A program made the translations under genes and the position numbers. 64,000 bases of DNA from an uncultured Armatimonadia bacterium (lineage in GTDB: Bacteria > Armatimonadota > Zipacnadia > Zipacnadales > UBA11051). The stretch spans positions 6,972 through 70,971 of the forward strand of contig CAZJVY010000006.1 in assembly GCA_964549395.1 (NCBI GenBank), in the 5' to 3' direction. Shown in pieces: positions 336-34,902 of the stretch; positions within the stretch are counted from its first letter, which is position 1, and every line of letters begins with the position of its first letter. The notes below the pieces were generated by a model. It worked only from the letters and a program-made list of their open reading frames with translations. It was not told the DNA's origin and searched no databases.

Positions 336-1778
336 TTACGTGGGGTTGCGGTTGCGGATTTGCCTCAGGATGTCCCAGTAAGCGCCGCGCGCTCCGGCGG
401 CGACGGCATCCACCAGTGGCTGGTTGTCATCGTAATCGTAGTCACGGTCATCGCCGCTGCCGCCGAAGAAGAAGCGCTGGTCACCGGCGATAACGTCCGA
501 CAGGAAGCCTGCCGCCTCAGCCGGCGCGCCCAGTGCCGGCGCGATGTAGAACACGGGGGCCAGCAGGTCCTCGTTCCCCTCTGTCTCCCCCCAGAGCGCC
601 GGGTTATCCTCCAGAGGGCCCTCGCTCGCGACGAAGTGGGCCATTCCTGTGCCCGCATAGACCCTCACTCCCAGAGAGATGCCCATGCAGGACGGACCGG
701 CGGCCTTCGCCCCCTCGATGGTCTCCCTGGCGGTCTCTTTCGTCTCGCCCGGCGCGCCGATGAGCAAGTCGAGCATTACCACAATCCCCTGCTCGTGGCA
801 TAGACTGACGGCTTCCGATATGGCGTCATGTGAGAAATCGCGTCCCAGACGCGCCAGCATCTCGTCATTCCCGCTGTCTGCTCCGAAGTTGATCCCCGCG
901 CAGCCCGCACGCCGCATCGCCTCGGCAAGCTCTCCCGAGAACGGATGTGGCGCGAGATATGCATACCACCGCGTCTTCTCTCCCAATCCCCGGCCGGCGA
1001 GTTCCTCGCAGACGGCCAGGGCATGATCCTCGGGAATGTTGAATTCGCTGTCGCACAGGTGATAGACGTCAATCCCTTGACTAAGCAGGTTCTGGACCTC
1101 GTCCGCGACGGCCACCGGCGAGCGCCGCCTCACGCGGTGGCCTTTGCCCAACGGGTCCGCGCAGAAAATGCACTTCCGGTCGCATCCGCGCTTGGTCTCC
1201 AGTCCCATCTGCCCGCCCTCGTTGAAGTAGCGGCGGTTATCTATCATATCGCGCTGCAGAGCGGGGCCGTCCGCGATGTCCGGCCAGGCCGGGGCGTTAC
1301 CTTCGATCCCATCGCCATCGTGCCACAGCAGCCCGGGCACATCCTGCGGGCTCATCTCGCCTCGCAGGGCTTGCAGCAGAAGCGGCACTGCTTCCTCGCC
1401 GTCGCCGAGCACACCGTAGTCAATTCCGGCTGCCCTCATGATGGCTTCCGGTGCCACGCAGAACCCCGCACCTCCTGCCACGACGGGCGCATCGGTGGAC
1501 TGCCGAATGGCGGCCACGACCTGCTGCAGTTCAGGCACGAATGAGTGCGAGCTGAGCAGCATGCAGTTGTCGGTGTTGCGGAATGTGATCCCGACCAACT
1601 GCGGGTCCGTCTCTGTGACGCGCCGCTGCAGCGCACCTGTCGGGTCGGCCTCAAGACACAGGTCCACGATTTCGACTTCCATGCCCCGGCGGCGGCAGGC
1701 CTCGCCCACGTACTCCAGCCCCAGCGGCGCAATCGGCGGCTTGGTCACATTTGAGTTCACCAGCACAATGCGAGACAT
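336..1778 (-). CDS. B12-binding domain / radical SAM protein (class B radical SAM)
   Basis: CDRKCIFC (CX3CX2C) radical SAM cluster motif. N-terminal MSRIVLVNSN...PPIAPLGLEY Rossmann-like B12-binding-type start. Start moved to the ATG at 1778, preceded by a GAGGTGAAG RBS. Confidence 0.7.
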   Translation of the reverse strand: MSRIVLVNSNVTKPPIAPLGLEYVGEACRRRGMEVEIVDLCLEADPTGALQRRVTETDPQLVGITFRNTDNCMLLSSHSFVPELQQVVAAIRQSTDAPVVAGGAGFCVAPEAIMRAAGIDYGVLGDGEEAVPLLLQALRGEMSPQDVPGLLWHDGDGIEGNAPAWPDIADGPALQRDMIDNRRYFNEGGQMGLETKRGCDRKCIFCADPLGKGHRVRRRSPVAVADEVQNLLSQGIDVYHLCDSEFNIPEDHALAVCEELAGRGLGEKTRWYAYLAPHPFSGELAEAMRRAGCAGINFGADSGNDEMLARLGRDFSHDAISEAVSLCHEQGIVVMLDLLIGAPGETKETARETIEGAKAAGPSCMGISLGVRVYAGTGMAHFVASEGPLEDNPALWGETEGNEDLLAPVFYIAPALGAPAEAAGFLSDVIAGDQRFFFGGSGDDRDYDYDDNQPLVDAVAAGARGAYWDILRQIRNRNPT

Positions 1779-2078
1779 TAACCGCTTCACCTCAAGCTTC
1801 GTGCGGCCGTGGAACATCACGCCTACGCCGCACGTCCAACCTGACAGTATGAAGATTTGGTGTCGTCACGGTAACACAGTGGCCGCGTAGGGCCGGACTG
1901 CTGCCTATCCCATTGGTTTGCCGCCGAGCGCCGGCGTACCTGCTTCCGTAGAGGCGCGTCCACAGAGTTCAGGGCGTCAGGCCCCCGGCAGTGCAGACCG
2001 GCGGCATAGAAACGGGATTGCAGGCCCGCAGTCATTGCAGTAAACTGGACTGCAGAAAACGCCAGGGAGATATGACAG

Positions 2079-2702: not shown

Positions 2703-5700
2703 ATGCTGGAAAGGTGCGTCGTGAGTTTGCTGGTGGGTTTGCTACTTGTCATGGCAGCTTCCACAGCGGGTGCCAAGAAGTGCAGTCGCTTCGTCACCGC
2801 GCAGATGCGTGCGAACGCGCTGAAGAACATCGAAACACTTGACTGGGCCGCCGGTCAGCAGAAGAGCGCCATTGCCGGAGCCCAAAGCTGGCTGCAGATG
2901 AGTGACGATCAGCTTTGGGAGATGGTACCCTCCCAGGAATTGCCACGCGCCGACATTACCAACAAGGGGGTCCTGTACGAGGGCAAGCGGCCCGGCTGCC
3001 CCAACTGCGGTGAGGCGGCGCTGAAGTATGGCATGAGGTGGTGGAAGTACGACGCGAACAATGCACCGTGGAAGGCGAAATGTCCCAACTGCGGCCAGGT
3101 CTATCCCAAGAACGATTTCTGGGCGTTCTACCAGACGGCGCTGGACGAACACGGCATGTTCCGGCGCGAACTGGGCGACCGTTCTCTGCTTTTCAACGCC
3201 GAGCACCCCGACCCAAACGACCCCTTGCACAAGCTCTATGTGGACGACGGCTACGGAATGGTGGACGAGAAGGGGGATACGCATCACATCATTGCTGCTT
3301 ACTGCCAGTGGGTGCAGTGGCCCAGAATCTACGGGGCCATATCGGCTCTGGCGCAGGCCTACACGCTCACCGGCGACAAGGCGTATGCCCACAAGGCGGC
3401 CGTGCTTCTGGACCGCGTCGCCGACGTGTACCCCGAGATGGATTATCTGCCCCTGCACAAGTTGGGCTTCCAGCACAGCCAGGGCGGCACCGGAGAGGGC
3501 CGCATTGAGGGATGCATCTGGGAGACCGGCGCGGGGCAGAGGTTCGCCCGCACCTACGACCTGATCTACGATGGCATCCAGGACGATGGAGAGCTGGTGG
3601 CGTTCTGCTCGCGGAAGGCGGAGCAGCACAAACTGGGTGATAAGAGCAGCATCGCCGCAATCTGCCGGCACATTGAGGACCATCTGCTGATGGAGATACT
3701 GGCTTCGTGCAGGGATGGCCGCATCAGGGGCAATACCGGCATGACACACGCCTGCCTGGCGAATAGTGCGATAGCCCTGGACAGAGAGAAGATCACGGAG
3801 GAATGGCTGAACTGGCTATTCGATCCATGCTATCCGGGTGAGTATAACCAAAGCAAGGATCCGGTGCCCTGGGTGTTGGTCGAAGGCCTGGACCGTGACG
3901 GAATGGGCGGCGAATGTGGGGGATATGGCTTCATCTGGACCCGCTACATGCAGCAGCTCGTCGAGATCATGTCATCCTACCCGGACTACAAGGCACATGA
4001 CATGGTGGCCGAGTTCCCGAAGCTGAAGCAGAGCTTCCTGGTAGAAGCACGTCTCAACGTGCTGGATTCCACCGTCCCGAACATCGGCGATAGCGGCGCG
4101 ACCGGCACATGGGGCCGGGCGGGTAACGCGGCCACCTTCATGCGGGCCTACAAGCTCTACAGGGACCCTCGCTTCGCCCAAATGGCCTGGCGCGAGCACG
4201 CGGAGTACAAGTCATCACTGCGGCTCCCGGATGACATCTTCGCTCCGGACCCCGATGCTCTCATCCGCGAGGCGGAGAAGGTCGCTCTGGCCGAACCATT
4301 CAAGCTCAAGTGCGACCATCTTGGGCGCTACGGCCAGGCGGTGTTGCAGACTGAGCAGCCTGCAGGCGGCCGTGCCCTGTGGATCCATTACGGCTACAGC
4401 AAGGGGCACTCGCACTGCGACTGCCTCAACATTGGTCTCTACGCAGAGAACATGGACATGCTTCCCGAGCTGGGCTATCCGGAGTACACAGGCTCCTGGC
4501 CCAAGCGGGGAGCCTGGACATCCAATACCATCAGCCACAATACGCTGGTGGTGAATGACACGAGGTCCGGCTACAGCCCCGGCGGCAGAATCAGCCTATT
4601 TGCAGTACAGCCGCCGCTGCGGGTGATGGATGTCAGCTCCCTGACGGCCTATCCCGATATGCAAACCTACCGGCGGACGGTGGCGCTGGTGGACGTCTCG
4701 GACACCGACAGCTACGTGTTCGACGTTTTCCGGGCCCGTGGCGGCAAGAATCATCGTCTCTCCTACCATGGCCCTGCGGAGAATGCGACTGTTGCCGGTC
4801 TGTCGCTGGTCAAGCAGCCGACGGGCACCTTTGCCAGTCCGGACGTGGAGTTCGCCACCCTCGATGGTGAGCAGGCCGATTTCTACAAGAGCAGCGGCTT
4901 CACATACCTGTACGATGTCGAACGCTCGCCTGGCGCTGTGGCTGGCGGGTACACGGTGGACTGGAAGGCCGAGGACCTGCGCGGCCGCATCAAGGAGGGC
5001 ACGGAGCCGCACCTGCGGCTGCACGGCCTGACGGCCTGCGATGCAGTGGCCCTTGCCAGCGGCGACCCGCCCCAGAACAAGTCCGGGAATCCCCGCCGCC
5101 TGCGCTACCTGATCCAGAGCCGCCTGGGTGAGAACATGGAGAGCCAGTTCGTGACCGTACTGGAGCCGTATGACACGACCCCGTTCATCAAACAGGTTCG
5201 CGTCCTGAAAGTCGAGCACGATGCGGACCATAATTCGGTCGCGGCGGTAGCGGTCGAGCTTGCGGACGGCACGACTGACATACTCATCAACTGTGAAGAG
5301 CCGACCCAGGTGACGGTCGAGGGCGGCATCGAGTTCAACGGCCGGATCGGCTTCCTGAGGCTCGTGAATGGGCAGATGAAGCTCATGCGCATGAGCAATG
5401 CCACACTGCTTAGCTACGGCGGCGTCACGCTGGCCGCGGATCAGGCCGCCTACAAGGGCAAGGTCGTCAAGATTGACGCTTCCGACGCGGAGAACAACCT
5501 TGTCTTCCTCGACCCGCCGCTTCCGCAGAAGGCCGATCTCGTAGGCGGGACGATACATTTCGGCAATGCGCTGCCTCTGGACACCAGTTATGAGATACGA
5601 GCCGTGACGCCCGAGGGCATTTCCACGGGCGACATCACGATCATCCACGGCTTCCAGGATAAGGGGGACTTCGCGGCCGGCCATAAGTACCTGGTCAATG

Positions 5701-5747
5701 TCGGGGATGACTACATGGTCCCATGCAGCGTCGGCCTGGACCGCTAG
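2703..5747 (+). CDS. large secreted heparinase II/III-like (polysaccharide lyase-like) protein, paralog 1, with embedded double CPxCG zinc ribbon
   Basis: N-terminal signal peptide. GHSHCDCLNIGLY...LPELGYPEY motif resembling the GHxHxD motif of the heparinase II/III family (from memory). CPNCG-x26-KCPNCGQVYPKNDF zinc ribbon at aa 99-139. GGAGGA RBS. Confidence 0.6.
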   Translation: MLERCVVSLLVGLLLVMAASTAGAKKCSRFVTAQMRANALKNIETLDWAAGQQKSAIAGAQSWLQMSDDQLWEMVPSQELPRADITNKGVLYEGKRPGCPNCGEAALKYGMRWWKYDANNAPWKAKCPNCGQVYPKNDFWAFYQTALDEHGMFRRELGDRSLLFNAEHPDPNDPLHKLYVDDGYGMVDEKGDTHHIIAAYCQWVQWPRIYGAISALAQAYTLTGDKAYAHKAAVLLDRVADVYPEMDYLPLHKLGFQHSQGGTGEGRIEGCIWETGAGQRFARTYDLIYDGIQDDGELVAFCSRKAEQHKLGDKSSIAAICRHIEDHLLMEILASCRDGRIRGNTGMTHACLANSAIALDREKITEEWLNWLFDPCYPGEYNQSKDPVPWVLVEGLDRDGMGGECGGYGFIWTRYMQQLVEIMSSYPDYKAHDMVAEFPKLKQSFLVEARLNVLDSTVPNIGDSGATGTWGRAGNAATFMRAYKLYRDPRFAQMAWREHAEYKSSLRLPDDIFAPDPDALIREAEKVALAEPFKLKCDHLGRYGQAVLQTEQPAGGRALWIHYGYSKGHSHCDCLNIGLYAENMDMLPELGYPEYTGSWPKRGAWTSNTISHNTLVVNDTRSGYSPGGRISLFAVQPPLRVMDVSSLTAYPDMQTYRRTVALVDVSDTDSYVFDVFRARGGKNHRLSYHGPAENATVAGLSLVKQPTGTFASPDVEFATLDGEQADFYKSSGFTYLYDVERSPGAVAGGYTVDWKAEDLRGRIKEGTEPHLRLHGLTACDAVALASGDPPQNKSGNPRRLRYLIQSRLGENMESQFVTVLEPYDTTPFIKQVRVLKVEHDADHNSVAAVAVELADGTTDILINCEEPTQVTVEGGIEFNGRIGFLRLVNGQMKLMRMSNATLLSYGGVTLAADQAAYKGKVVKIDASDAENNLVFLDPPLPQKADLVGGTIHFGNALPLDTSYEIRAVTPEGISTGDITIIHGFQDKGDFAAGHKYLVNVGDDYMVPCSVGLDR

Positions 5748-5782: not shown

Positions 5783-5817
5783 TTGCCTGTCGAGCAATCG
5801 GCAGGCAATTTGTTTTG
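5783..5817 (+). terminator. candidate intrinsic terminator after heparinase-like gene 1
   Basis: Stem TTGCCTG / CAGGCAA (7 bp, 12-nt loop) followed by TTTGTTTTG. Confidence 0.35.
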
Positions 5818-5961: not shown

Positions 5962-7167
5962 ATGGGCCTTTATCGGTACTCAGCGGATGACGGAGATATC
6001 CTGAGAAGTGGCGAGGTCTCAGCGGCCAGCTTGCCGCAGGCCATCAGGAACTTGCAGTGCCGTGGCCTGCGCCTGAATGAAGTCGCCGCAATGAGCCGCG
6101 CAGGCGAGATGTGGGGGCGTCGGCATGAGATCGAGCGGGTGTGGCTGTACCGTCATCTGGCCGATCTGCTGGCCTCCGGCGTGACGCTGTCGGCAGCGCT
6201 GGAGGTGCTCGCCCAGGATGCGCCATGTTCGGCAGACGCAGTTCGCTTGCGCACCATGTCCCAGCTTGTCGCCGGCCAGGGCCTCACGCTGTCGGAGGCG
6301 ATGGAGCAGCACCCAACCCTCATCGGCAGCTACGGAATCGCCGTGGTGCGCTCCGCTGAGCAAGCCAACCGCCTTCCCGAGAGCCTGCGCATGCTCGCCG
6401 CACACCTCGACAACAGCAACCGCATCCGCGAGCGCTCCATGACGCCTATCGTTTACCCCGCCATCATCCTGATATGGATGGGTGTGGTGTTCGTGTTCCT
6501 GACGACCTTCATACTGCCCAAGTTCATGGACCTATTCCTTGAGTTGGGCATGACCCAAGACAAGTTCCCGCTTCCTACGCTCATGGCCATCAGAGTGAGC
6601 AACGCGGCCCCCTTCTTTCTGTTCTGGCTCGTAGTGTTGCTGCTGGCGTTCGCGCTTTTGCGGGTGTTCTTGCGGCGATCGAAGCGGGTACAGCTCGATC
6701 TGGCGATGTGGTCGCTGTGGATGCCCATTTTCGGGCGGCTGAATCGGGACTGTGCAACGGCACGCGTACTTGGCGTGCTGGCCTTGGCACTGGAAGCCGG
6801 AATGCCGCTGGACCGAGCGCTTGAGGCGGCCGGCCCTGCTGCTGAAAACGAACTGATGAATCTAGCGATGCGCAGGGCGGTGGATCGTGCCCGCCGTGGA
6901 TATTCGGCCGGCAAATCAATCGCCGGTGCCGGAATTCTGCCGCCGGCACTTGTCTGGCATTTGCAGACGGCCGAGAAGTCCGGACATCTGGCGGCGACCT
7001 GCCAGGCCGCCGCGGAGACCTACATCGCCCGTGTCGAGATGCACACCGTCCGCACGGCGGCAGTTCTCGAGCCGCTTCTCATCATATTCGTTGGCATATG
7101 CGTCGGCTTCGTCGGCCTCAGCATGTTCCTGCCGTTGGCCGGGATTATCGGAGAGCTGTCATCATAG
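5962..7167 (+). CDS. gspF: type II secretion / type IV pilus platform protein (GspF/PilC family)
   Basis: About 400 aa with three TM segments and two repeated cytoplasmic domains, the typical GspF layout. Immediately upstream of the GspE ATPase. Confidence 0.8.
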   Translation: MGLYRYSADDGDILRSGEVSAASLPQAIRNLQCRGLRLNEVAAMSRAGEMWGRRHEIERVWLYRHLADLLASGVTLSAALEVLAQDAPCSADAVRLRTMSQLVAGQGLTLSEAMEQHPTLIGSYGIAVVRSAEQANRLPESLRMLAAHLDNSNRIRERSMTPIVYPAIILIWMGVVFVFLTTFILPKFMDLFLELGMTQDKFPLPTLMAIRVSNAAPFFLFWLVVLLLAFALLRVFLRRSKRVQLDLAMWSLWMPIFGRLNRDCATARVLGVLALALEAGMPLDRALEAAGPAAENELMNLAMRRAVDRARRGYSAGKSIAGAGILPPALVWHLQTAEKSGHLAATCQAAAETYIARVEMHTVRTAAVLEPLLIIFVGICVGFVGLSMFLPLAGIIGELSS

Positions 7168-7217
7168 ACCAGCACAGATGTCTTCGCGGTAGGTAGCTGC
7201 CGAAGGGAGAAGCTGAA

Positions 7218-8732
7218 ATGTGGTTATTCGAGCCGCTGACATGTGAGCAAACCGTCCCGGGTGACAGGAGGTGGCTGCATCTCTCACCTGACGGTCTGGC
7301 GTTGAGCGAGGCCGGTAAGGTGGCTGGCGACACATCATATGCCCTCGCGGACTACGGCGCAATCTCCGAGGTCCTTCTGCGCGGCGGCCGCCGGGCCAGT
7401 CTGCGGCTCGCCTTCGCCGATCACCGCAACCCGTGGGTAGTGCGTGGAGTGCCGCGACCACATGCAGAATGGGCGCTGCACACGATAAGCGGATATCGTA
7501 AGCTGACACGCTGGGCGCTGAGCGAGGAGGCGAAGGCACCCCTGACGTTTGACAAGATAGCGGCTCGCGTGAACATGTACGCCGATGACATGCCCCTGCT
7601 CGGCAATTTGCTTATCGCCCAGGCGATAGCTCATGCGGCCAGCGACATGGATCTGGAGCCGACGGGAGACGCCTACGCCCTCCGCTACCGCGTTGACGGT
7701 GCGGTGTTCTCCGTGGCCGGGATGCCCAGGACTGCTGCCGAGCGCCTGCTGCGAATGCTGAAGAACCAGGCGAATCTGCAGGCGCACCGCTCCGACATCA
7801 CCCAGGAGGGCCGCATCCGGCTCGCGGCGCAGACCGGTCCGGTTGACCTGCGCGTAACCATCATGCCGGGCATAGCGGGGGAGAAGGTCAACGTCCGTCT
7901 GCTCAACCCCGCTACACAGCTCTTCGGCCTGGATGAGCTGGGCATGAGCGGCCCGCAAGTGGCGCGGATGAAAACGCTCCTGTCTGCACCGACCGGCGCG
8001 GTGGTGCTGTGCGGGCCGGGTGGCGCCGGCAAGACGACAACGATCTACGCCGCACTCACCTACCTGGCGGGCCTGGGGCCCGGACGCGCCATCTCCAGCA
8101 TCGAAGACCCGGTGGAATTCGATCTGGAGGGCGTTTCTCAGACACAGGTCGGTGCCGGGCTGGACTTCGCGAAGGCGCTTGCGGTGTTGCTGCGCCAGGA
8201 TCCGGGGGTGGTGATGGTCGGCGAAATCCGCGACCCCGAAACCGCACAAATCGCCATGCGCGCGGGGATGACCGGCCAGCTGCTGCTCACAACCATGCAT
8301 GCCAGCGGGCCGGAGCTCGTGATCCCGCGCCTGTTCGACCTGGCGGTCGAGCCGTACATGATCAGCTCGGCGTTGGCGGCCATTGTTTCCCAACGGCTGC
8401 TACGCAAGGTGTGCGAAAGCTGCGCTGCAACCTGCACTCCGAGCGCGGAGGAACTGGCCGCTGCAGGGATCACTTCGGAAATGGCCGCGGGCGCTACGTT
8501 CAAGACCGGCAAAGGGTGCCCCGCATGTCATGAGACCGGCTACAAGGGGCGCATCGGCATATTCGACCTGACGGCGATTGACGAAGACACGGCCAATCTG
8601 ATAATGGCGCGCAACATGGCTGCCCTGCGCATGAAGCTGACAAGTGACGGGTTGCGGGCCGCGGCGTTTGAGAAGGTCAAGGCCGGCGTCACCGACATCG
8701 CCGAGGTCATCCGCGTGCTGGGAGTGAGGTAG
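7218..8732 (+). CDS. gspE: GspE/PilB-family secretion ATPase with atypical N-terminal domain
   Basis: Walker A GPGGAGKTTT, Asp box IEDPVEF, Walker B VMVGEIRD, His box LLLTTMHASG, C-terminal tetracysteine CESC...CPACHETGYKGR. Confidence 0.85.
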   Translation: MWLFEPLTCEQTVPGDRRWLHLSPDGLALSEAGKVAGDTSYALADYGAISEVLLRGGRRASLRLAFADHRNPWVVRGVPRPHAEWALHTISGYRKLTRWALSEEAKAPLTFDKIAARVNMYADDMPLLGNLLIAQAIAHAASDMDLEPTGDAYALRYRVDGAVFSVAGMPRTAAERLLRMLKNQANLQAHRSDITQEGRIRLAAQTGPVDLRVTIMPGIAGEKVNVRLLNPATQLFGLDELGMSGPQVARMKTLLSAPTGAVVLCGPGGAGKTTTIYAALTYLAGLGPGRAISSIEDPVEFDLEGVSQTQVGAGLDFAKALAVLLRQDPGVVMVGEIRDPETAQIAMRAGMTGQLLLTTMHASGPELVIPRLFDLAVEPYMISSALAAIVSQRLLRKVCESCAATCTPSAEELAAAGITSEMAAGATFKTGKGCPACHETGYKGRIGIFDLTAIDEDTANLIMARNMAALRMKLTSDGLRAAAFEKVKAGVTDIAEVIRVLGVR

Positions 8733-8734
8733 TA

Positions 8735-8992
8735 ATGCGCCGGATCGCGTCAGACATCTACTGGGGCCTGTACGGCCTTGCTCACTACGTGCAGTTCCTC
8801 GTTCTCGCAGCACTGGTGTTGCTGCCGGTTGCGGCGTTCACCGTAACGACAATGCACATCGGCGCCCCCATGCTGCATGTGCCACTGCTGGTCGCAGCCG
8901 GCCATTTCTTGGTCCTGGGGCTGTTGGGTTACGGCATATACTACCTGCCCGCGCAGCTCGAGAGTAGAGTCGCTTCTCCCGAGGATGAATAG
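8735..8992 (+). CDS. small 2-TM membrane protein of unknown function
   Basis: ATG 3 nt after the gspE stop with a GGGAGTGAGG RBS. Two hydrophobic helices. Confidence 0.4.
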   Translation: MRRIASDIYWGLYGLAHYVQFLVLAALVLLPVAAFTVTTMHIGAPMLHVPLLVAAGHFLVLGLLGYGIYYLPAQLESRVASPEDE

Positions 8993-8994
8993 CA

Positions 8995-9351
8995 ATGCGC
9001 TCTGCCCCTGACGCACCGACAACCTGGGACAAGCTGGCCGACGCGATGCCGACATTCGCGCATTGGTGGGCGGTGCTGGCTGACCTGCCCGGCTATCTGG
9101 TCGAGTGGTGGCCCGTCGGGAGCATGTGGCTGCGCTTTGTTTGCGTGCTTGTGCTGGCCATCGTATTTGTGGCATTGTTCCTGTTATGCGGCATTGGAGG
9201 GCTGGCATGGGCGGGTGCGCCGGTGATATTCCTTGGAATGGGGATGTGGCTCTGGCAGCGCAACGCCCGCACCAGAGCTGACCGCTTCTGGTACTACAGG
9301 TCGGCCCCGCTGAGAAGTGACATAGCCTTCCCGGAGGCCGATGACGAATGA
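8995..9351 (+). CDS. small 2-TM membrane protein of unknown function
   Basis: Starts 3 nt after the previous stop. Trp-rich with two hydrophobic helices. Its stop overlaps the next start (ATGA). Confidence 0.4.
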   Translation: MRSAPDAPTTWDKLADAMPTFAHWWAVLADLPGYLVEWWPVGSMWLRFVCVLVLAIVFVALFLLCGIGGLAWAGAPVIFLGMGMWLWQRNARTRADRFWYYRSAPLRSDIAFPEADDE

Positions 9352-9737
9352 GACGGGGAGCGACACTCATCTCGACATTGGTGGGAATGGCCATCCTGGC
9401 CGCGGTGCTGGGGGCCACGGTACACATCTACTCTCTCGGCAGCCTCGCCGCCGGCGTCGCCGAGAGCCGCAGCATCGCTCTAATGGTTGCTGAGACACAA
9501 CTGGAGACCATGCAGGCGGAAGGATATGCAGCGCTTCCTGCAATCGGCGAGTATCCTCTGCACGTGCCGATGCTTGGCAAACTGCCGGGAGCAGCGGGAA
9601 CGCTCACGGTCGCTCAAGGGCCGGACCCGCAAAGCCGCACGGTCAGTGTGAAGATAGCGTGGCAGCAGCGCCCCGGACGCCCCACTTCAGCCGTCACCCT
9701 CAGCCGCATTATCGCCGCCGGGGGGATGAGCCGATGA
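9348..9737 (+). CDS. minor pseudopilin-like protein (GspI-like; non-canonical N-terminus lacking Glu+5)
   Basis: RRG|ATLISTLVGMAILAAV hydrophobic N-terminal helix. Translationally coupled within the operon. Confidence 0.45.
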   Translation: MRRGATLISTLVGMAILAAVLGATVHIYSLGSLAAGVAESRSIALMVAETQLETMQAEGYAALPAIGEYPLHVPMLGKLPGAAGTLTVAQGPDPQSRTVSVKIAWQQRPGRPTSAVTLSRIIAAGGMSR

Positions 9738-10165
9738 ACCGCAGGGGCATCACGCTGCTGGAGACACTCATCGCAATCGCGGTCTTCACCGTGCTCATCT
9801 CGTTGGTGCTGAGAATGTTCTTTCTCGGTGACAGGGCCATGATGCGCAGCGAGGCCGGGCTGAAAGCGACGTTGGGCCGCGTCGCCCTGCAATCCCAGTT
9901 GCGCAATGATATCTGGATGGCAACGCAGTTCCAGAGTGCCGCCGATGACATGGCAACATTCATCATGCCTGACGGGACTGTTGCGATCTATGCGCCTGCT
10001 GCAGGTGGCAAGGTATCGCGCACCTGCAGCGGCGAGGAGACTCTGTACAAAGGCACCTTGGTGTTCTCGGAGGGCAAGCACGGTCTGATAGCAGTGCTCG
10101 GCCAGGACACCGCCGAGTGGGGCTTCGCAGCCCGGATGCGCAATAAGGCGCGTGAGCGGCGATGA
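9734..10165 (+). CDS. pseudopilin with prepilin-type N-terminal cleavage/methylation motif (GspH/J-like)
   Basis: MNRRG|ITLLETLIAIAVFTVL with Glu at +5. Start placed at ATG 9734, overlapping the previous stop (ATGA). Confidence 0.6.
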   Translation: MNRRGITLLETLIAIAVFTVLISLVLRMFFLGDRAMMRSEAGLKATLGRVALQSQLRNDIWMATQFQSAADDMATFIMPDGTVAIYAPAAGGKVSRTCSGEETLYKGTLVFSEGKHGLIAVLGQDTAEWGFAARMRNKARERR

Positions 10166-10623
10166 GATGCAGCAGGCGAAGAGGAGCGGCATTGCTGCTA
10201 GCGGTGATTCTCGTAGGCACCGCGGCGATGCTGGGCATGGCCGCATACGTGACGACCGTGGCCGTCGGCGCCGCCCGCGTGCAACACCAGCGCGATACGC
10301 TGCAGTGCGTCTATGCGGCGGAGAGCGGCATCGAACTGGCCATGGCGCGCGCCAACCGGGGTGTCATCGCTGATGGGCCGATAGCCGGCAGCGTCGGCAC
10401 CGCGCTCTTCACCGCCCGCGCCGTGCAGACAGACGGCAAGCTGACCATCACCTCCGACGGCATCCAACAGCGCCCCGGACGCGCGCAACTGGTACGCCGC
10501 ATCGAGGTGGTATGCCGCCGTTCGAACGGCACGTACCAGATCAGCCGGTGGCGGACGTTGCCGCCGCCCGAACCCGAAGCGATTGAGCCGGCACCGATTG
10601 GCCCGCAGGAGGAGAACCGATGA
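10162..10623 (+). CDS. minor pseudopilin-like protein (GspK-like, no Glu+5)
   Basis: RRRG|AALLLAVILVGTAAML N-terminal hydrophobic segment. ATGA overlap with neighbours. Confidence 0.45.
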   Translation: MRCSRRRGAALLLAVILVGTAAMLGMAAYVTTVAVGAARVQHQRDTLQCVYAAESGIELAMARANRGVIADGPIAGSVGTALFTARAVQTDGKLTITSDGIQQRPGRAQLVRRIEVVCRRSNGTYQISRWRTLPPPEPEAIEPAPIGPQEENR

Positions 10624-11180
10624 CCTACCGGCGCGGCTTCATGTATGCGGATGTGCTCTGCACGCTGGCCGTCATCGGCCTCATGTACGCCCTGGTGATG
10701 GGCTACGCAACGCGCGCGGTGACGCATACCCGGACTGCGGCATGTGCACACAACATGCACGAAATCGGGGTGGCACTACGCGCGTATGCATTGGACTATG
10801 GCGGCGCCTTTCCGGCGCAGCAATGTGGCCTGGAAGCCCTTTGGGACAAGTATGCGGCAGACAAGGGGATTCTAGTGTGCCCGCAGGTGGAGGTTCTTGC
10901 GAAAACGCAGAAGGACGACGTGCCGCCATCGCGGGTGGCGGGCCGCACTGATTTACTGGTGGACTATGTCTATCGCGGCGGCCTCTATGGCGATGACCTG
11001 CCGTCTCTCCCCGTTGCGATGGACTACCTGGCCCGACAGCACCAGGGCGGCGCGAACGTGTTGTATCTGGATGGGCATGTGCAGTGGCGCGCCTTCCCCG
11101 AGACGCACATCTTCAGCAGGCAAATGCTCACCTCCGGGGCGCTGGACGGAACCCCGCCGCTACGGGGGGATAAGCCATGA
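10620..11180 (+). CDS. prepilin-type N-terminal domain protein, DUF1559 family (H-X9-DG type)
   Basis: RRG|FMYADVL N-terminus. Characteristic C-terminal LYLDGHVQW (DGH) motif. Confidence 0.65.
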   Translation: MTYRRGFMYADVLCTLAVIGLMYALVMGYATRAVTHTRTAACAHNMHEIGVALRAYALDYGGAFPAQQCGLEALWDKYAADKGILVCPQVEVLAKTQKDDVPPSRVAGRTDLLVDYVYRGGLYGDDLPSLPVAMDYLARQHQGGANVLYLDGHVQWRAFPETHIFSRQMLTSGALDGTPPLRGDKP

Positions 11181-11692
11181 AACGCGGCTTCATACTTGTT
11201 GAATTTGCGAGTGCCGTGGCGATCATTGCTATTCTGGCGGCCATCCTGTTTCCGGTCTTCGCGCGAGCCAGGGAGAAGGCCCGCCAATCGAACTGCCTCA
11301 CCAACATGCTGAACGTCGGAGTGAGCCTGCGCCAGTATGCCGCCGACTACTGCGGTGGCTTTCCGCCGAACGATCTCGATTTCACACCCCTACTCCACAA
11401 GTACCTGCCCGACGAGCGGGTGCTCGACTGCCCCAGCACGACTCGCACGTTCGATGGCACCGAAGGCGACTACTCCTACAAGGGCGGCTATCGCGACGAC
11501 GACCGTGGCGACCTGGTTCTGATGATGGAGCGAATCCTCAATGCCCACAACGAGGGCTGCAACTATCTTTGCATAGATGGTCACGCGAGGTGGTTCAAAG
11601 CTTCCTCTCAGTGTGTCCCGTCCGATGTAAAGTCAATGCCCGGGGTTGACACAAGCCCCTTGGGCAATTCATTCGGAGAGTTCACGCCATGA
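11177..11692 (+). CDS. prepilin-type N-terminal cleavage/methylation domain protein, DUF1559 family
   Basis: MKRG|FILVEF...IAILAAILFPVFARAREKARQSNC hallmark N-terminus. C-terminal CIDGHARW. Confidence 0.75.
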   Translation: MKRGFILVEFASAVAIIAILAAILFPVFARAREKARQSNCLTNMLNVGVSLRQYAADYCGGFPPNDLDFTPLLHKYLPDERVLDCPSTTRTFDGTEGDYSYKGGYRDDDRGDLVLMMERILNAHNEGCNYLCIDGHARWFKASSQCVPSDVKSMPGVDTSPLGNSFGEFTP

Positions 11693-12348
11693 AACGGCAG
11701 CATATCATAAGAATAGTCGGCAAGCGCGCATTCTGTCTCGCGGACTTGCTGATAACCATAGCAATGATCGCGATCCTCGCCGCGATTCTGTTTCCGGTAT
11801 TCGCCCGCGCCCGCGAGAAGGCGCGAGCCGCGACGTGCACGAGCAACCTGGTGAATATCGCGCTCGCCCTGCGCAACTATGCCGCAGACAACGACATGCG
11901 CTATCCGCCGCGTGACAATGACCTGTCCCCGCTGTGGCCGGTGTATGTCAACACCCGCCTGACCTTTGCCTGCCCCAGCATATCGGCCGGCAAGCCGATG
12001 GGAATGATGCCGGCGGACGAGCCTCCGCAGCCTCCCACTGGTGGACCGCCACCTCCTCCGGATGTTTCGACTACGCCGCCGCCCGGACCGCCTGTACAGC
12101 AGCCGCCACCAGCGGCCATGCCTCCGCCGGAGGACGCACCTGAGGTGACGCTGGAAACGGGCTATTTCTACGTCAGCGGCTACCGCTACGACCAGTTCAT
12201 ACGCCGGATGCCGCTGTCGGGAGACTCAGGCGCAAGCCGGCACAATGACAGGGCCAATGTGCTCTTCACGGACGGCTCGCTTGGACTGTGGACAAGAGCG
12301 GACTACCTCCGGGCAGGGCTGCAACGCTATGCATGGATGGATGATTGA
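11689..12348 (+). CDS. DUF1559-family prepilin-type protein with proline-rich linker
   Basis: IAILAAILFPVFARAREKARAATC. Pro-rich insert PPQPPTGGPPPPPD...PPPGPP. C-terminal FTDGSLGLW. Confidence 0.7.
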   Translation: MKRQHIIRIVGKRAFCLADLLITIAMIAILAAILFPVFARAREKARAATCTSNLVNIALALRNYAADNDMRYPPRDNDLSPLWPVYVNTRLTFACPSISAGKPMGMMPADEPPQPPTGGPPPPPDVSTTPPPGPPVQQPPPAAMPPPEDAPEVTLETGYFYVSGYRYDQFIRRMPLSGDSGASRHNDRANVLFTDGSLGLWTRADYLRAGLQRYAWMDD

Positions 12349-12914
12349 TGCGAACCGGACGGGCCGCAAACAGGGGATTCAGCGGACTTGAGCTGCTCAT
12401 GGTCATGTTGATACTGACCGGCCTGACGGCGTTCGTTGTGCTGATTGGAGCACAGGCACGCTCCAAGGCGCGTGAGAACAACTGCCTGAGCAATCTGAAG
12501 CAGCTCGCGCACGCTGCGGCGATGTACGCCGCAGATTACGGCGGCCGCTACCCCCGCGACAGCTTCGCCAACGGACTGATGCCTTACATCAAGAATGAGC
12601 AGGTACTGCGCTGCCCCACGCAAGGCGTCTGGCGTGGCTCCTTTGACACTCAAGCCGAGTTGCGCGAAGCCGGGGAGAACTTCAGTTGGTATCGGGACGA
12701 GCAGGGCAAGCTGACGGTCATTGACTATTACTTCGTACCCGGTCTGTGCAGCGATGACCGGCCTGACACGATACTAGCATACGATGACATCCCGGACCGC
12801 CACCCGCACAAGTCCTTCAACATGGTGCGGCTTGACGGCGCGGGCTGGAAGCTGCCGGCCGGACGATGGCCCGGCGTTCCTGCTCAGGTCAAGGAGGTTG
12901 CTGGCAATGAATAG
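12345..12914 (+). CDS. DUF1559-family prepilin-type protein
   Basis: RG|FSGLELLMVMLILTGL...ARSKARENNCLSNLKQL. C-terminal RLDGAGW. Confidence 0.6.
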   Translation: MMRTGRAANRGFSGLELLMVMLILTGLTAFVVLIGAQARSKARENNCLSNLKQLAHAAAMYAADYGGRYPRDSFANGLMPYIKNEQVLRCPTQGVWRGSFDTQAELREAGENFSWYRDEQGKLTVIDYYFVPGLCSDDRPDTILAYDDIPDRHPHKSFNMVRLDGAGWKLPAGRWPGVPAQVKEVAGNE

Positions 12915-13446
12915 ATGTGGATTTACGCTGATAGAACTGCTGGTGGTAATCGCGATTATCGCGATCCTGTCCGCCATGCTGATGCCGTCGTACTCGACCA
13001 CCAATGACCGCAGCCGCGTGGCGGAATGCAACACGAATCTGACCTCGATCTACCTGGGTATCCAGATGTGGGTGGAGGATCACGGGACGCGCCCCGAGAG
13101 TCTGCAGCAGCTCTATGAGAAGGGATACGTGACCGACGAGTCCATCCTGCGCTGTACAAAGACCGGCGCGGAGTACTACTACAATCCGGCCGCGGGGAAG
13201 GACGAGATACTGGCCGCCTGCGTGCATCCCCATACTGAGAGTGGCAAGCGCCCGCACTCGTTCAGGCAATCGTATGCTGCGCTGCTGGGCGGCGGCAGGC
13301 TGGTCGAGATCGGTCGCAAGACCTACTCCTTGCCTGACTACGGCGTTAAGGAAACGCCCGAGGAAGAGGAGAACAGGACACGGATTCCGCCGCCTGGTCC
13401 TCCTCCATCCGCTCCTCCTCCGCCACCCCCACCCCCATCCCCATAG
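12907..13446 (+). CDS. prepilin-type N-terminal cleavage/methylation protein (DUF1559-like) with poly-Pro C-terminus
   Basis: MNRCG|FTLIELLVVIAIIAILSAML. Start at ATG 12907, overlapping the previous stop. Ends PPPGPPPSAPPPPPPPPSP. Confidence 0.6.
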   Translation: MNRCGFTLIELLVVIAIIAILSAMLMPSYSTTNDRSRVAECNTNLTSIYLGIQMWVEDHGTRPESLQQLYEKGYVTDESILRCTKTGAEYYYNPAAGKDEILAACVHPHTESGKRPHSFRQSYAALLGGGRLVEIGRKTYSLPDYGVKETPEEEENRTRIPPPGPPPSAPPPPPPPPSP

Positions 13447-13599
13447 TGCTGTTCTCTTGCAGATGGACAAACGCCGGCCGCTCGCGTGGCCGGCGTTTGC
13501 GTTTGGTGTTTTCCCAATCGTGGAGGCCAAGGCCGCTTGGCCGGCGAAATTGAGCCATCGCGGAAGTCCGATGTACCAGCCGCAGAAGGGGGCAGTCAC

Positions 13600-16500
13600 A
13601 TGCGCATCTGTAGTCTGATCTGTCTGATTATGGGAGGAATACTCATCATGAGCGGACTTGTCTTGGGCGGCGCGGTTGAGGATGAACCGTTGGTGGACTG
13701 GTCACTGTGGGAGAAGTACCGCAAGACGGTCCAGCACCCGGCCGGCTATATCAATGCACAAGACCTGGAAAACGCGCGGGAAAACATCAAACGTTATGAT
13801 TGGGCGCGCGATTTCGCCAAGTCCGCCGAAGACACCGTGCTCCCGCACCTGCAGCGGCTGACGCCGGAGTTCATCGAGAGCATGATACCGACCACGACGT
13901 GCATTCCGTGCTACCAGTGCCCGGCGTGTCACGACAAGGGACTGCCCGGTCACCCCGGTGGGGAATGGAGTTGGTCGCTGGACAACCCCGACGTCATAAC
14001 GTGTCGGCGCTGCGGCACCGTATTCCCCAATGACGAGTACCCGGAGACTATCGTGTTGGAGTGCAAGTCGGAAGCCGGCAAGGGCCAGAAGTTCAGCTTC
14101 TATGGCGCTAAGACTTTCAGGCAGTGGGGCTATCCCAACTACCGCCCCAGCTTCTCTAGCGGCATCAGGGCCCAGAAGATAGGCTGGTGCAAGAGCATGG
14201 TCTACCGCCTCGCGCGAGCCTACGCGCTGACCGGCAAGCCCGAGTACGCCGAGCCCACCAGGCTGCTGCTTCTGCGCTTTGCGGAGGTGTATCCCAACTG
14301 GCTGCTGGTGTCCACGTACGGCGAGATTGCCGACATGGACCCGCACGTGGCGGCCTTCAGCATGGACAGCCTTCCCGAGGATGAACTGGTGCACCCGCCC
14401 AACAAGCCCGACCGCAAGCTCTACAACGGCTCGTGGGCGGGCTGCAGATGCGGCGGCGGAGGCCAGGAGGGCTATGCGACCGGCATGTTCCTATCGGCGT
14501 ACGAGTTGACCTACGACGCCAGGAAGGCCGATGGCACGCCGCTGTACAGCGAGGAGGAACGCATCAAGATCGAGCACGACCTGATCCTGGAAAGCTGTGT
14601 GCACCTCGTCGCCGAGAAGCGGATTAACAACAAATCGGTCGGCAACCGCATCGCAGTGGCGAATGTCGGCATCGCTCTGGGGCATCCCGGCTTCGTGCGC
14701 TTCGGCCTCGAAGGCTGGGACCTGACCATGAATAACTGGTTCCTGGCTGACGGCTGCACGCCCGAATCGCCGGCATACGCGCTGATGAGCCTGGGGGGAG
14801 TATACTCACTAGGACAGTCAATCCGTGGCTACTCCGATCCACCCGGCTACACGGATGAAAACGGCAAGCACATCGAGGGGCTGAACCTCTACGAAGGCAG
14901 GTACAAGCTGGTCTGGCAGCGGATGCTGGAGGGTCTACAGGGCAATCTGGTCTATCCCCCGTATGCCGATTCCTATCGCACCTCGGGCATCGGTACGCGC
15001 TTCGCCGAGTTGCTGGCGGCCAATTACCCCGACAACCCGCAATGCCTGGCACTGCTGAAGGCGTATGCCGGCGATGACCTGGGCAAATGCGACCAGGAAA
15101 CGGCCATCTTCTTCAGGAGGCCGGGCCTGGAAGAGAAGCAAGCCCCACCGCTTCATTTTGACGACAACTTCTTCCCGATACTCTGTCTGGGGCAGGTGCG
15201 CACCGGTGAGGATGGCCGCACATCTCTGGCGCTGTTGAGCGCCACTCACTCGGGCGGACATCATCATGTTGACAGCCTCAACCTGTACTACTGGAAGGAC
15301 GGGCAGGAACTGCTGACAGACCTCGGCTACCTCTGGGATCACCCGAAGGCAGGCATGACCCGTCGCACCTTCTCCCACAACACCGGGATGGTTGACCTCA
15401 AAGAGCAGAAGATGAAGGGACGCGGCGGGCAATTCCACCTCTTCCATACCGGTGACAGCGTCAAGGTGATGGAAGCGTCCTCCAACGCATACGACGGTGC
15501 CGATGTCTACCGCCGCACGGTCGTGCAGATTGACCATGCGCCTGGGAACTCCTACATTGCCGACATCTTCAGGCTGCGTGCCGATGGCTCGCGCGACCTG
15601 GTCTATCACGGGCCTAACAGCGATTACGAAGTCTCCGGCATCCAGTTGCAGCAGGGCGACATAGTCCTCGCCGCCGAGAAGCAGATGCGCTTCGGCGTGC
15701 GCTTCCACGTCACCGGCAAGACGGATGAGATCTACGTGGACGATGTGAGTATCAAGCTTGCCGACGGGCGGGAGCTGGCAGCCAATCCCTCCGCCTCGGA
15801 GTTGAGTGCGAAGGGGCAGCTTGTCGGCTGGGGCCGCTACGGTGGCAGCGGAACGGCGCAATCAGGCCCGAATTCACCCGGACGCACTGACGAGCGCTGC
15901 GCCTACCTGAAAATCACCGGCGGAGAGGATGTCAACCAGGCGCTGATACAGGGCGACACCAACGGCTATACGGGTCCGAACGCCCTGGAAATGCCCCTCG
16001 GCAGCGAGGGAAAAGTGAGCTTCTGGATTCGCGGCAATGCCGCCACCTGCAGTGTCGGATTTGTGACCTGGCCCAACGACCCCAATGACCCCGGTGACCG
16101 TGCCCACATCGGCCTCGCTTCAGTGCCTGTCACCGACCAGTGGGTTCAGCACACATTGGACTTCTCGCTCAAGCGCAGCGGCATGGACCTTGGGAATGTG
16201 AAATCGGCGCACAGTCCGGATAGTTGGAGCGCTGTCTGGAAAGTGGGGGATGCCCTGCTGTTCTCGGCGCACCATTGCGGCCAGCGCGGCGAACTGACAT
16301 ACATCGGCGACGGCTGGGGCCAACGCGACTGGCGCAACACCGACATCGGCGCCACCATTCCGTACATCGTCCGTCGCCACAGGCCCGACAGCGGCGTCTC
16401 AGCCTTCGCTACCGTCTATGAGGCCCACCCGCCGGACGCGGCGCTTGTTAAATCGGCCTATCGTCTCGCAGTGCCGGAAGAGCAGCGCGACAATCTGGTT

Positions 16501-23126: not shown

Positions 23127-23839
23127 TGCCGTCCGACCTCTGTCTCTGCGGTATCCACGGGTGCAAGGCTGCCGTCACGCAGTTGCAGGCAGCGGCCGAA
23201 CCGCGACGCCTGCTCCAGGTTGTGGGTGACCATCAGCACTGTAACGCCCTGCTGCTCGGCCAGCTCCAGCAGCAGAGACACGACCGTCTGCCCGGTGTGG
23301 CGGTCGAGGTTGCCCGTCGGTTCATCACACAACAGCAGGTGGGCATCGTTTATCAACGCTCTGGCGACGGCAACTCTCTGGCGCTCCCCTCCCGAAAGCT
23401 GTGCGGGGAAGGCGTCTTGCCGGTCTGCAAGGCCGACGCGCTCGATCAGCCGCGTGGCCCTCGCATCGGCCTCCTTGCCTCCGGCATTCGCCAGCGTGGG
23501 CAGCAACACGTTCTCAACGGCCGTCAACTGGGGCAGCAGATGATGATCCTGGAAGACAAACCCCACTTGCGATGCGCGGAATGAAGCCAGTGCCTTGCCG
23601 TGCAGAGCGGTTACCTCGGTGTCACCGAGGCGTACCCGTCCTGATGTCGGTTTGTCCAGTGCTCCGGTAATGTTGAGTAGCGTGCTCTTGCCTGAACCTG
23701 AGGGCCCCACGACGGCCACGGTCTCACCAACACTGATCTGGCAGGAAACACCGTCCAGCACCGTGAGATCCGGCCCTCCCGCAATCGGGAACCGTTTCGT
23801 GATTTCCTGCAGAACGAGACCCTCTGCCGGACCTGTCAT
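23123..23839 (-). CDS. ABC transporter ATP-binding protein (LolD/MacB-type)
   Basis: Walker A GPSGSGKST, signature LSGGERQRVAVARAL, Walker B LLLCDEPTGNLD. Start placed at MTGPAEG (23839). Confidence 0.85.
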   Translation of the reverse strand: MTGPAEGLVLQEITKRFPIAGGPDLTVLDGVSCQISVGETVAVVGPSGSGKSTLLNITGALDKPTSGRVRLGDTEVTALHGKALASFRASQVGFVFQDHHLLPQLTAVENVLLPTLANAGGKEADARATRLIERVGLADRQDAFPAQLSGGERQRVAVARALINDAHLLLCDEPTGNLDRHTGQTVVSLLLELAEQQGVTVLMVTHNLEQASRFGRCLQLRDGSLAPVDTAETEVGRQ

Positions 23840-25407: not shown

Positions 25408-25410
25408 AGG

Positions 25411-31207: not shown

Positions 31208-31222
31208 TATCCGTCTCCCGGT

Positions 31223-31798
31223 CTATTCCTTGGTTCGCAGCAGATACGGCTTGTTTGCCGGCACGCGAACGATGGCATCCGATGGGCATACGTTCGCGAT
31301 GGCGCACTGATTGCAGTTGATGCAGCGGTCATGCCGAATCTGCAGGATGAGCGAGCCGTTCCCGTAATCCCGGCACCCCTTCACGCAGGCTCCGCAGCCG
31401 ATGCACTTGGACTCGTCTATCACGTACTGGTAATAGGGATCCTCAATGAAGCTGCGGCTGATCGCATTGGTGGGGCATCGCTGGTTCTCGGCGCCTTCGG
31501 TGTCATCCGCGCGCTTCTCGGCTAGATAGCCGAAGCAGAGGTCGCAGTACCCGCACATTGCGTACTCGTGCACGCACTTGACTGCCGAGGGGTTCAACAC
31601 ACATGCCGTGGCGCACTTCCCGCATTGCGTGCATTTGGCGGGGTCCACCTGCCACACGTACTCATTGGCGTTCCCCCGAGACACCAGCGCCCCGAGCAAC
31701 CCACCGGTGAACAGCAGACCGGCGCCTCGCGCGGCCTGGGTCAGGAACTCGCGCCGGGTCATCGTCTCGCGCTCGTCTGTGGAAGGCTCTAGGGACAT
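31223..31798 (-). CDS. Tat-exported NapG/MauM-like ferredoxin with four [4Fe-4S] motifs
   Basis: Twin-arginine motif TRREFL. CTQCGKCATAC, CGYCDLC...CP, CIGCGACVKGC, CINCNQCAIANVCP. Confidence 0.7.
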   Translation of the reverse strand: MSLEPSTDERETMTRREFLTQAARGAGLLFTGGLLGALVSRGNANEYVWQVDPAKCTQCGKCATACVLNPSAVKCVHEYAMCGYCDLCFGYLAEKRADDTEGAENQRCPTNAISRSFIEDPYYQYVIDESKCIGCGACVKGCRDYGNGSLILQIRHDRCINCNQCAIANVCPSDAIVRVPANKPYLLRTKE

Positions 31799-34884: not shown

Positions 34885-34902
34885 ATGTTTCACGTGAAAC
34901 AT
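34885..34902. promoter_or_regulatory. perfect 18-bp palindrome ATGTTTCACGTGAAACAT in a divergent intergenic region (candidate operator)
   Basis: The left half is the exact reverse complement of the right half. Sits in an AT-richer stretch and is followed by a TTGAC-like hexamer. Confidence 0.4.

Follow-up and report, generated by a model that had tools for sequence, protein, structure and literature searches.

Four polysaccharide-lyase-fold paralogs of an uncultured Armatimonadia bacterium and the zinc-ribbon-like segment conserved in their family

A 64,000-nucleotide stretch of DNA from an uncultured Armatimonadia bacterium (contig CAZJVY010000006.1; "the window" below, at its full length) encodes four related proteins, here called P1 to P4. 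An initial annotation, made from the letters of the sequence, described them as giant secreted proteins resembling heparinase II/III, three of them with an embedded four-cysteine zinc ribbon that seemed out of place in an exported enzyme. Two of the genes bracket an operon resembling those for type II secretion systems (T2SS) and type IV pili, which was taken as a hint of a cargo or substrate relationship. The locus raises the questions of what these proteins are, what a ribbon would be doing in them, and whether the operon has anything to do with them. The answer that we consider probable as a whole, if far from certain, is that P1 to P4 are lyase-fold paralogs, that their ribbon is a structural element with facultative metal ligands, and that the position of the T2SS-like operon is accidental. 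This points to no new kind of biological system. Coordinates of all features are collected in Table 1.

The three complete reading frames had been delimited correctly, at 1014, 1049, and 1200 amino acids (aa). These are large proteins, but "giant" is too strong a label, since many copies of the family are embedded in proteins of 2,000 to 4,000 aa. All four are distant paralogs, as the annotation had it: BLASTP aligned P1 with P3 across the full length at 26% identity (E value, 1e-61) and P1 with P2 at 1e-19, and P4 matched the other three at 1e-10 to 1e-15, with P1 at 1e-15. The GHxHxD...LGY block that had been singled out is present in every one. P1 consists, in order, of a signal peptide, N-terminal helices, the ribbon insert, an (alpha/alpha)6 toroid, a beta-sandwich, and a C-terminal beta domain. 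P3 is longer at both ends, with an additional beta-rich domain of about 150 aa at the N terminus and an extension at the C terminus. P2 differs from P1, P3, and P4 in having some 150 additional aa within its beta-sandwich region (residues ~745 to 900; window positions ~15830 to 16300); this insert is beta-rich, has no Pfam match, and may be a carbohydrate-binding module (CBM). The fourth copy had been described as lacking the ribbon, which turned out to be an artifact of the window edge. What is available of P4 aligns with the last 60% of P1, the frame continues without a stop to base 64000, and its orthologs (P0274 to P0284; 986 to 1142 aa; 56 to 66% identity) carry an N-terminal CPIH...CxxC element. 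The missing N terminus of P4 must accordingly be encoded past base 64000, and its toroid and ribbon, to judge from the orthologs, are expected there as well.

The heparinase II/III-like assignment was right. Pfam family PF07940 (Hepar_II_III_C) matched P1 with 50.8 bits and P2 with 34.9 bits, above the gathering cutoff of 24 bits. P3 and P4 had no direct match in Pfam or NCBIfam, so their paralogy was shown through BLASTP and through orthologs, including the P4 orthologs P0281 to P0284, which carry PF07940. The AlphaFold model of P1 reached a predicted local distance difference test (pLDDT) score of 92.6 and a predicted template modeling (pTM) score of 0.90, and shows the architecture of the heparinase II/III-like superfamily, in which an antiparallel beta-sandwich comes after an (alpha/alpha)n toroid. 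Searched with Foldseek, it matched polysaccharide lyase (PL) families PL17, PL40, PL39, PL15, PL12, PL21, PL35, and PL33 with E values of 1e-24 to 1e-11. The nearest solved structures belong to PL40, PL17, and PL39. The assignment can be narrowed to a family that resembles PL40, PL39, and PL17 and has no solved structure of its own. Sequence searches of the PDB reached the beta domain only, where they found PL17 alginate lyases and the PL40 ulvan lyase Uly1040.

The active site of Uly1040 has been described (PMC12915356): the carboxylate is neutralized by Asn245 and Trp246, the base His485 owes its activation to Asp358, His487, and Mn2+, Tyr305 acts as the acid, and the substrate is positioned by Glu301 and Tyr511. 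The tetrad recurs in PL39 (PMC12915356). HMMER placed H569, H571, and Y595 of P1 on H485, H487, and Y511 of Uly1040, and the surrounding block also matched the HGH...D...HN block of PL17. A sub-profile of the toroid, built from P1 residues 325 to 480 and 21 relatives and searched against the PDB, placed E404, Y408, and D463 on E301, Y305, and D358 of Uly1040, and Y408 on the catalytic Y365 of Atu3025; an ungapped extrapolation puts N344 within one residue of N245. Conservation was computed across the family from about 150 cluster representatives with 31 to 45% identity. Among them N344 is kept in 93%, E404 in 91%, and both Y408 and D463 in 100%, and the beta-domain residues H569 (99%), H571 (98%), Y592, H612, and N613 all fall at 92 to 99%; E589 and Y595 stay below 90%. 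By alignment, then, the family appears to hold the PL39/PL40-type set of a His base, an Asp-His-metal tetrad, a Tyr acid, and an Asn neutralizer, and the 93 to 100% conservation of aligned residues argues that it has beta-elimination machinery of that type. The reaction would be a beta-elimination in which Asn344 neutralizes the carboxylate, His569 takes the C5 proton after activation by an Asp463-His571-metal tetrad as described for PL39 and PL40, and the departing glycosidic oxygen receives a proton from Tyr408.

The family is nonetheless distinct from the characterized lyases that it resembles. Uly1040 (PDB 9vtk) is 16% identical to P1, and the sequence match (E value, 4e-10) covers the beta domain only. 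A Trp follows the neutralizing Asn in Uly1040 where P1 has Thr, P1 has about 100 more C-terminal residues, and the ribbon and coil inserted at residues ~85 to 195 of P1 correspond in Uly1040 to a shorter, partly disordered stretch (residues 64 to 133), in which loops 85 to 91 and 102 to 109 are unresolved (PMC12915356). PL40 is found mostly in Bacteroidota (PMC12915356), in contrast to the family of P1 to P4, which occurs in Armatimonadota, Latescibacterota, Planctomycetota, Firmicutes, and Actinobacteria. The best sequence matches in the PDB were PL17 oligoalginate lyases (Alg17c, 4nei; AlgL17, 9irq; AlyA3, 7bm6; profile E value, 4e-11), which share with P1 the fold and the conserved HxH...D...HN metal block and lack the ribbon insert. 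We rejected an identification of P1 as a PL17 oligoalginate lyase. The NCBIfam equivalog NF042990 scored 31.5 bits against a cutoff of 1400, the positions of PL17 Tyr450 and Arg438, whose roles are known (PMC4765187), are Trp599 and Glu594 in P1, and Asn344 is followed by Thr in place of the PL17 pair Asn201-His202. The PL39 alginate lyase Dp0100 (6jph) and the PL15 enzymes Atu3025 and exoHep (3a0o and 6lja) are 12 to 16% identical to P1, and their extra N-terminal domains differ and lack a Cys4 site. A literature search, within the library of papers covered, returned no relevant paper that links a zinc ribbon with a polysaccharide lyase and none that pairs Armatimonadota with heparinase.

The same fold also serves enzymes that do not cleave, and P1 to P4 could instead be polymer-level uronate C5-epimerases, or other nonlytic enzymes, that remodel an envelope polysaccharide or exopolysaccharide made by the cell itself. 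P3 adjoins a glycan-biosynthesis cluster, which is compatible with a role on a self-made polysaccharide or as an epimerase. Against this alternative, once the epimerase DS-epi1 is set aside, each of the six best structural neighbors is a lyase; the PL39/PL40 tetrad is conserved in full together with the Tyr acid; CBMs and surface-anchoring domains of the kind found in degradative enzymes occur in relatives; and the match to C5-epim_C lies far below its cutoff. A sulfatase is encoded downstream of P4 as well, and its C-terminal domain is that of N-sulphoglucosamine sulphohydrolase (SGSH_C). We regard the epimerase explanation as decidedly unlikely and a lyase-type activity as the better expectation. 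The genes downstream of P4 fit, weakly, the breakdown of a sulfated, N-substituted acidic glycan, and that segment may be a locus for sulfated-glycan use. In this genome, P1 to P4 would most likely act outside the cytoplasm on a uronic-acid-containing and possibly sulfated glycan. The recurring neighbors that might have revealed the substrate, a set of DegT, deacetylase, isochorismatase, and S9 genes, came from a single synteny block of closely related Latescibacterota/Gemmatimonadota loci and are not independent evidence.

The cysteine insertion had been given as a strictly conserved CPxCG pair; the pattern CxxC-x(22-26)-CxxC-x3-[FY]PxND[FY] does hold in P1 to P3, but the strict form does not, because the knuckles of P2 read CPACH and CRRCG. 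The motifs are CPNCG-x22-CPNCGQVYPKNDF in P1, CPACH-x22-CRRCGTVFPNDEY in P2, and CPICG-x24-CPECGRWFPSNDF in P3. The additional upstream Cys of P2 is kept in three orthologs as CYQCPAC...CxxC. The corresponding element of the P4 orthologs, TCPIHPF...PWKLVCKHCK...YYPNPDYPDDG (CPIH-x21-PWKxxCxxC), is a Cys-His-Cys-Cys version. In the full-length model of P1 the knuckles flank a helix and a beta-hairpin (residues 115 to 117 and 121 to 126) at a pLDDT of 79 to 93, so that the segment has what characterizes a zinc ribbon, namely, two CxxC (or CxxH) knuckles around a beta-hairpin, conserved in homologs. The hairpin was thus modeled with confidence within the protein, but the isolated ribbon (residues 84 to 146; 23-sequence alignment) reached a pLDDT of only 61.6, and Foldseek with this low-confidence model returned a best E value of 1.1 and nothing below 1. 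The ribbon being confident in the whole protein and poor alone fits an integrated element better than an autonomous domain. Weak HMMER matches at the N terminus (P1 6 to 62 on Uly1040 8 to 64, and P1 216 to 315 on Uly1040 133 to 226) suggest that the ribbon and the conserved coil after it were inserted between two toroid helices; the inserted material is probably residues ~85 to 195 of P1.

A census of the ligand positions supported conservation of the cysteines and showed that they can be dispensed with. All four are kept in 118 of 120 close homologs, and among 137 domain copies from the wider family 91 are CCCC, about 40 (about 30%) lack the cysteines altogether, and 3 are CHCG. Such conservation, which the annotation had needed for its zinc ribbon, is far beyond chance. 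The commonest cysteine-less pattern is S-T-D-S, and these segments, which occur among others in Paenibacillus and Phytoactinopolyspora proteins, align residue for residue with the cysteine forms (e.g., GSPVTG...PWKIVDPSSGYKFPTNDF and GSPVTGKEIDKYGNYPY..PWKIVDPSSGYKFPTNDFGAYY). Proteins without the ribbon cysteines also have almost none elsewhere in the domain (median, 0.0%, versus 0.75% in the C4 forms; Mann-Whitney p = 6e-10, uncorrected for phylogeny), and the only columns found to switch together with cysteine loss were the ligand positions themselves. The neighboring residues are held more tightly. Across the family, P135 is conserved at 100%, N137 at 99%, D138 at 97%, and F139 and W123 at 95%, and the whole set of W123, K124, P135, N137, D138, F139, and D181 to G185 lies at 90 to 100%, above the cysteines and equal to the catalytic residues. 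In our reading, the four-cysteine segment would be a structural, zinc-ribbon-like staple that braces a beta-hairpin on which the PWK and PxNDF motifs are displayed, ahead of a VDDGxG loop, all three of them near-invariant, and selection would hold the hairpin and these three motifs rather than the metal. The metal would be facultative: lineages that avoid cysteine keep the scaffold with S/T/D/S, and others use C-H-C-C. The ribbon may also touch the active site.

Zinc ribbons are typical of nucleic-acid- and protein-binding proteins, and the segment might instead be a functional zinc finger, or a redox sensor, that gives the enzyme a second, regulatory activity. The top Foldseek matches of the isolated ribbon, all nonsignificant, were mostly zinc modules of RPA12, Brf1, T4 primase, ATCase, and Sir2, and one Joint Genome Institute (JGI) annotation labels a homolog as a predicted RNA-binding Zn-ribbon protein. 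Such a role is very hard to reconcile with a segment that is kept in the roughly 30% of the family that is free of ligands, that does not fold confidently alone, and that sits in proteins with signal peptides (by a heuristic) or in giant surface proteins. Nor did the N-terminal module (residues 60 to 200) occur in any new architecture when it was searched by itself against a set of 5.8 billion proteins, which gave only 21 short proteins of 88 to 239 aa, several of them labeled as partial. Classical ribbons, such as the C-terminal ribbons of RPA12 and TFIIS and the ribosomal C+/C- pairs, do resemble the P1 ribbon in having two CxxC knuckles 22 to 26 residues apart around a beta-hairpin and in existing in cysteine-containing and cysteine-free versions across lineages. 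The P1 ribbon differs from them in lying inside a carbohydrate-active enzyme, in being probably nonautonomous, in its nonsignificant structural match to known ribbons, and in that its metal binding is a prediction. The structural staple thus remains the preferred explanation of the segment.

The family in which this staple is found is large. An exhaustive search gave 2,502 representatives of 50% identity clusters at an E value of 1e-3 or less, 824 of them at 1e-30 or less. The nearest relatives of P1 (77 to 79% identity) are from metagenome-assembled genomes (MAGs) of Armatimonadota and "Candidatus Zipacnadia". Close homologs of about 1,000 aa (56 to 79% identity), often in several copies per genome, come from MAGs of Armatimonadota, Latescibacterota, Gemmatimonadota, Planctomycetota, Lentisphaerota, Poribacteria, WS1, and Myxococcales, and the wider family extends to Paenibacillus and an actinomycete. 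Over the loci that we numbered L003 to L071, P1-type proteins 56 to 79% identical span at least eight phyla, with three or four copies in single Armatimonadota MAGs; such high conservation over so wide a phyletic range suggests horizontal transfer followed by local expansion. Relatives of 1,900 to 4,000 aa carry CBM_4_9, Big_2, FIMAH, LRR_5, and He_PIG domains, which are typical of surface proteins, and these include both C4 and cysteine-less ribbons. In one 1586-aa protein from a Verrucomicrobiota MAG (P0116), a full P1-like module (57% identity) stands behind an N-terminal protein-kinase domain (PF00069/PF07714), an arrangement in which a Ser/Thr kinase might use the lyase fold as its sensor.

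The annotation had found a zinc ribbon unexpected in an exported enzyme, a view weakened by the cysteine-less copies described above, by orthologs that cannot be exported through a signal peptide, and by signs of an anaerobic host. P1 to P3 and 85 of 114 close orthologs have, by a hydrophobicity heuristic, N termini consistent with Sec signal peptides, the P1 N terminus with a Kyte-Doolittle maximum of 3.1 over 12 residues. In Latescibacterota the P1 orthologs begin directly at the equivalent of KK(R/C)SRFV. Altogether, 16 Latescibacterota and Gemmatimonadota orthologs (61 to 68% identity) start with MSxGKKRSRFV, have an in-frame stop 18 to 201 nucleotides (nt) upstream, and keep the C4 ribbon. 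Because of that stop they cannot carry a signal peptide, and the ribbon module therefore works in the cytoplasm too; they have the look of cytoplasmic counterparts to an enzyme that other phyla export. As judged from these sequences, one and the same enzyme apparently occurs in cytoplasmic, periplasmic, and surface forms.

Alternatively, the cysteines of exported members could pair into two disulfides that lock the same knuckle-hairpin, with zinc confined to the cytoplasmic orthologs. Cysteines of exported proteins are usually paired in oxidizing compartments, and the scaffold tolerates complete loss of its ligands, so that metal is not essential to the fold. The window, however, encodes a NuoF-like iron-sulfur (Fe-S) flavoprotein, an Fe-S flavoprotein resembling the small subunit of glutamate synthase, and several ferredoxin-domain proteins, amid pyrroloquinoline quinone (PQQ)-type beta-propeller proteins, as well as B12-binding and other radical S-adenosylmethionine (SAM) enzymes; the Fe-S flavoprotein, ferredoxin-domain, and radical-SAM genes lie at 23836 to 31798 (-), 336 to 1820 (-), and 34833 to 37427 (+). 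P1 and P2 each have 16 cysteines outside the ribbon, mostly unconserved, which would be unusual for proteins that fold in an oxidizing compartment. Together these features suggest an anaerobe with reduced extracytoplasmic thiols, in which a Cys4 site in the exported forms would be chemically unproblematic. The C-H-C-C form of the P4 subfamily and the CHCG forms likewise fit metal ligation and not disulfides. We consider disulfides unlikely, although of the alternatives weighed here they are the least improbable.

The overall reading has to be set against several points. The proteins belong to a family that is biochemically uncharacterized, and identity to any solved lyase is only 12 to 18%. 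The toroid sub-profile matched only lyases in the PDB, with marginal E values of 0.065 to 0.22. The residue after N344 is Thr, versus His in PL17 and Trp in PL40, the position of the proposed PL17 base Tyr450 is Trp599, and P3 has Ala (A721 and A722) in place of the H612/N613 pair. The signal peptides were called by a heuristic, the isolated ribbon has no significant structural match, and sequence does not separate zinc from two disulfides. A more ambitious proposal, which we offer tentatively as possible but not as likely, is that these proteins are a new PL family or a deep new PL40-like subfamily, marked by an N-terminal, ribbon-braced cap whose PWK, PxNDF, and VDDGxG residues help to form the substrate pocket. 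The family would then have a new specificity, one enzyme would be deployed inside the cell, in its periplasm, and at its surface, and the redox conditions of each compartment would decide whether the metal staple is kept or dropped. If they are active lyases with a specificity of their own, they would add a widespread family of carbohydrate-active enzymes that has no solved structure, and provide a handle on the acidic glycans eaten by these mostly uncultured phyla. The ribbon itself offers a natural experiment in which a structural Cys4 site is kept, turned into C-H-C-C, or made polar across compartments and lifestyles within one scaffold.

As annotated, P1 and P2 flank gspF, gspE, and pilin genes on the same strand. 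Two minus-strand reading frames in between (8750 to 9427 and 9614 to 10246) are probably spurious, and the small plus-strand frames at 8735 to 10165, two of them with prepilin-type N termini, leave the operon from gspF to the pilins uninterrupted. P1, the operon, and P2 could form one secretion module, with the two proteins as cargo or substrates of the machine. Immediate adjacency on one strand and N termini that resemble signal peptides (by the heuristic), as T2SS cargo needs, are what such a module would show, and pilin-like genes did occur near P1 orthologs in 5 of 71 related loci, which were surveyed by tblastn with flanks of up to 10 kb. In the same census GspE was found in none and GspF in one, and even orthologs 77 to 79% identical (L003 and L004) were without these genes. 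The two terminator-like hairpins with the longest stems in the region coincide exactly with the boundaries between P1 and gspF and between the pilins and P2, although the total of such sites there is not above that of shuffled sequence. The second overlaps an alternative GTG start of P2 at 13486, which was rejected for that reason in favor of ATG 13600. In three loci (L045, L004, and L021), P2 orthologs (67 to 74% identity) stand 2 to 5 kb from P1 orthologs with an HtrA protease between them, further Hepar_II_III_C paralogs nearby, and no T2SS. The window yielded neither a secretin nor a prepilin peptidase, and 16 orthologs are without a signal peptide. The clustering of the paralogs is conserved and the T2SS neighborhood is not. 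The cargo hypothesis is not supported by this comparison and seems to us quite improbable; the operon between P1 and P2 would be an accident of local gene order.

Table 1. Features of the window (positions in the 64,000-nt stretch) and loci of orthologs that have no signal peptide
Feature	Position	Strand	Description and basis
P1	2703-5747	+	1014 aa, polysaccharide-lyase-fold protein
Probable Sec signal peptide of P1	2703-2774	+	MLERCVVSLLVGLLLVMAASTAGA, ahead of KKCSRF; hydrophobicity heuristic
P1 ribbon	2997-3119	+	C99-P-N-C102, 24 residues, C127-P-N-C130-GQV-YPKNDF; translation
Catalytic candidates, toroid domain	3732-4091	+	N344, E404, Y408, D463; conservation and profile alignment
Candidate catalytic/metal block, beta domain	4407-4541	+	H569-x-H571, E589, Y592/Y595, H612-N613; HMMER alignment
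Terminator-like hairpin	5783-5808	+	36 nt past P1 stop; 11-bp stem, then TTTGTTTT
T2SS/type IV pilus-like operon	5962-13446	+	gspF, gspE, two small membrane open reading frames, about 8 pilin-like genes; Pfam T2SSF, T2SSE, N_methyl, DUF1559
Prepilin-type N terminus	9348-9737	+	GATLISTLV; small open reading frame
Prepilin-type N terminus	within 9659-10165	+	GITLLETLIAI; small open reading frame
Terminator-like hairpin	13468-13499	+	22 nt past last pilin gene, before P2; 14-bp stem, 10 G-C pairs
P2	13600-16749	+	1049-aa paralog; Pfam PF07940, 34.9 bits
P2 ribbon variant	13909-14040	+	CYQCPACH, 24 residues, CRRCGTVFPNDEY; C107/C110/C135/C138
P3	50166-53768	+	1200-aa paralog; BLASTP versus P1
P3 ribbon	50817-50945	+	CPICG, 26 residues between knuckles, CPECGRWFPSNDF; C218/C221/C248/C251
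Genes downstream of P4	57642-61929	-	Polysaccharide deacetylase, class IV aminotransferase, SGSH_C sulfatase, Gfo/Idh/MocA oxidoreductase; Pfam
P4	62005-64000 (open reading frame listed 62005-63981)	-	C-terminal 658 aa of paralog, cut by window edge
Signal-peptide-less ortholog loci	gene start near 10001 of each locus		L001, L002, L012, L022, L025, L028, L038, L040, L041, L046, L047, L050, L051, L053, L060, L063

Two further groups of neighboring genes were seen. Beside P3 (55910 to 57549, +), a gene for a xylose-isomerase-like TIM barrel adjoins one for a calcineurin-like phosphoesterase, and near the P1 ortholog of L045 (14625 to 16142, -) the TIM barrel and the phosphoesterase are fused in one 505-aa protein; the pair could be a recurring partner of the family or a coincidence. 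The other group, at 37244 to 42219 (+), is of isoprenoid or hopanoid type and unrelated to the lyase-like proteins; it comprises a squalene-hopene-cyclase-like gene and, after it, genes for a DUF116-polyprenyl synthetase fusion and for a prenyltransferase-toroid protein.

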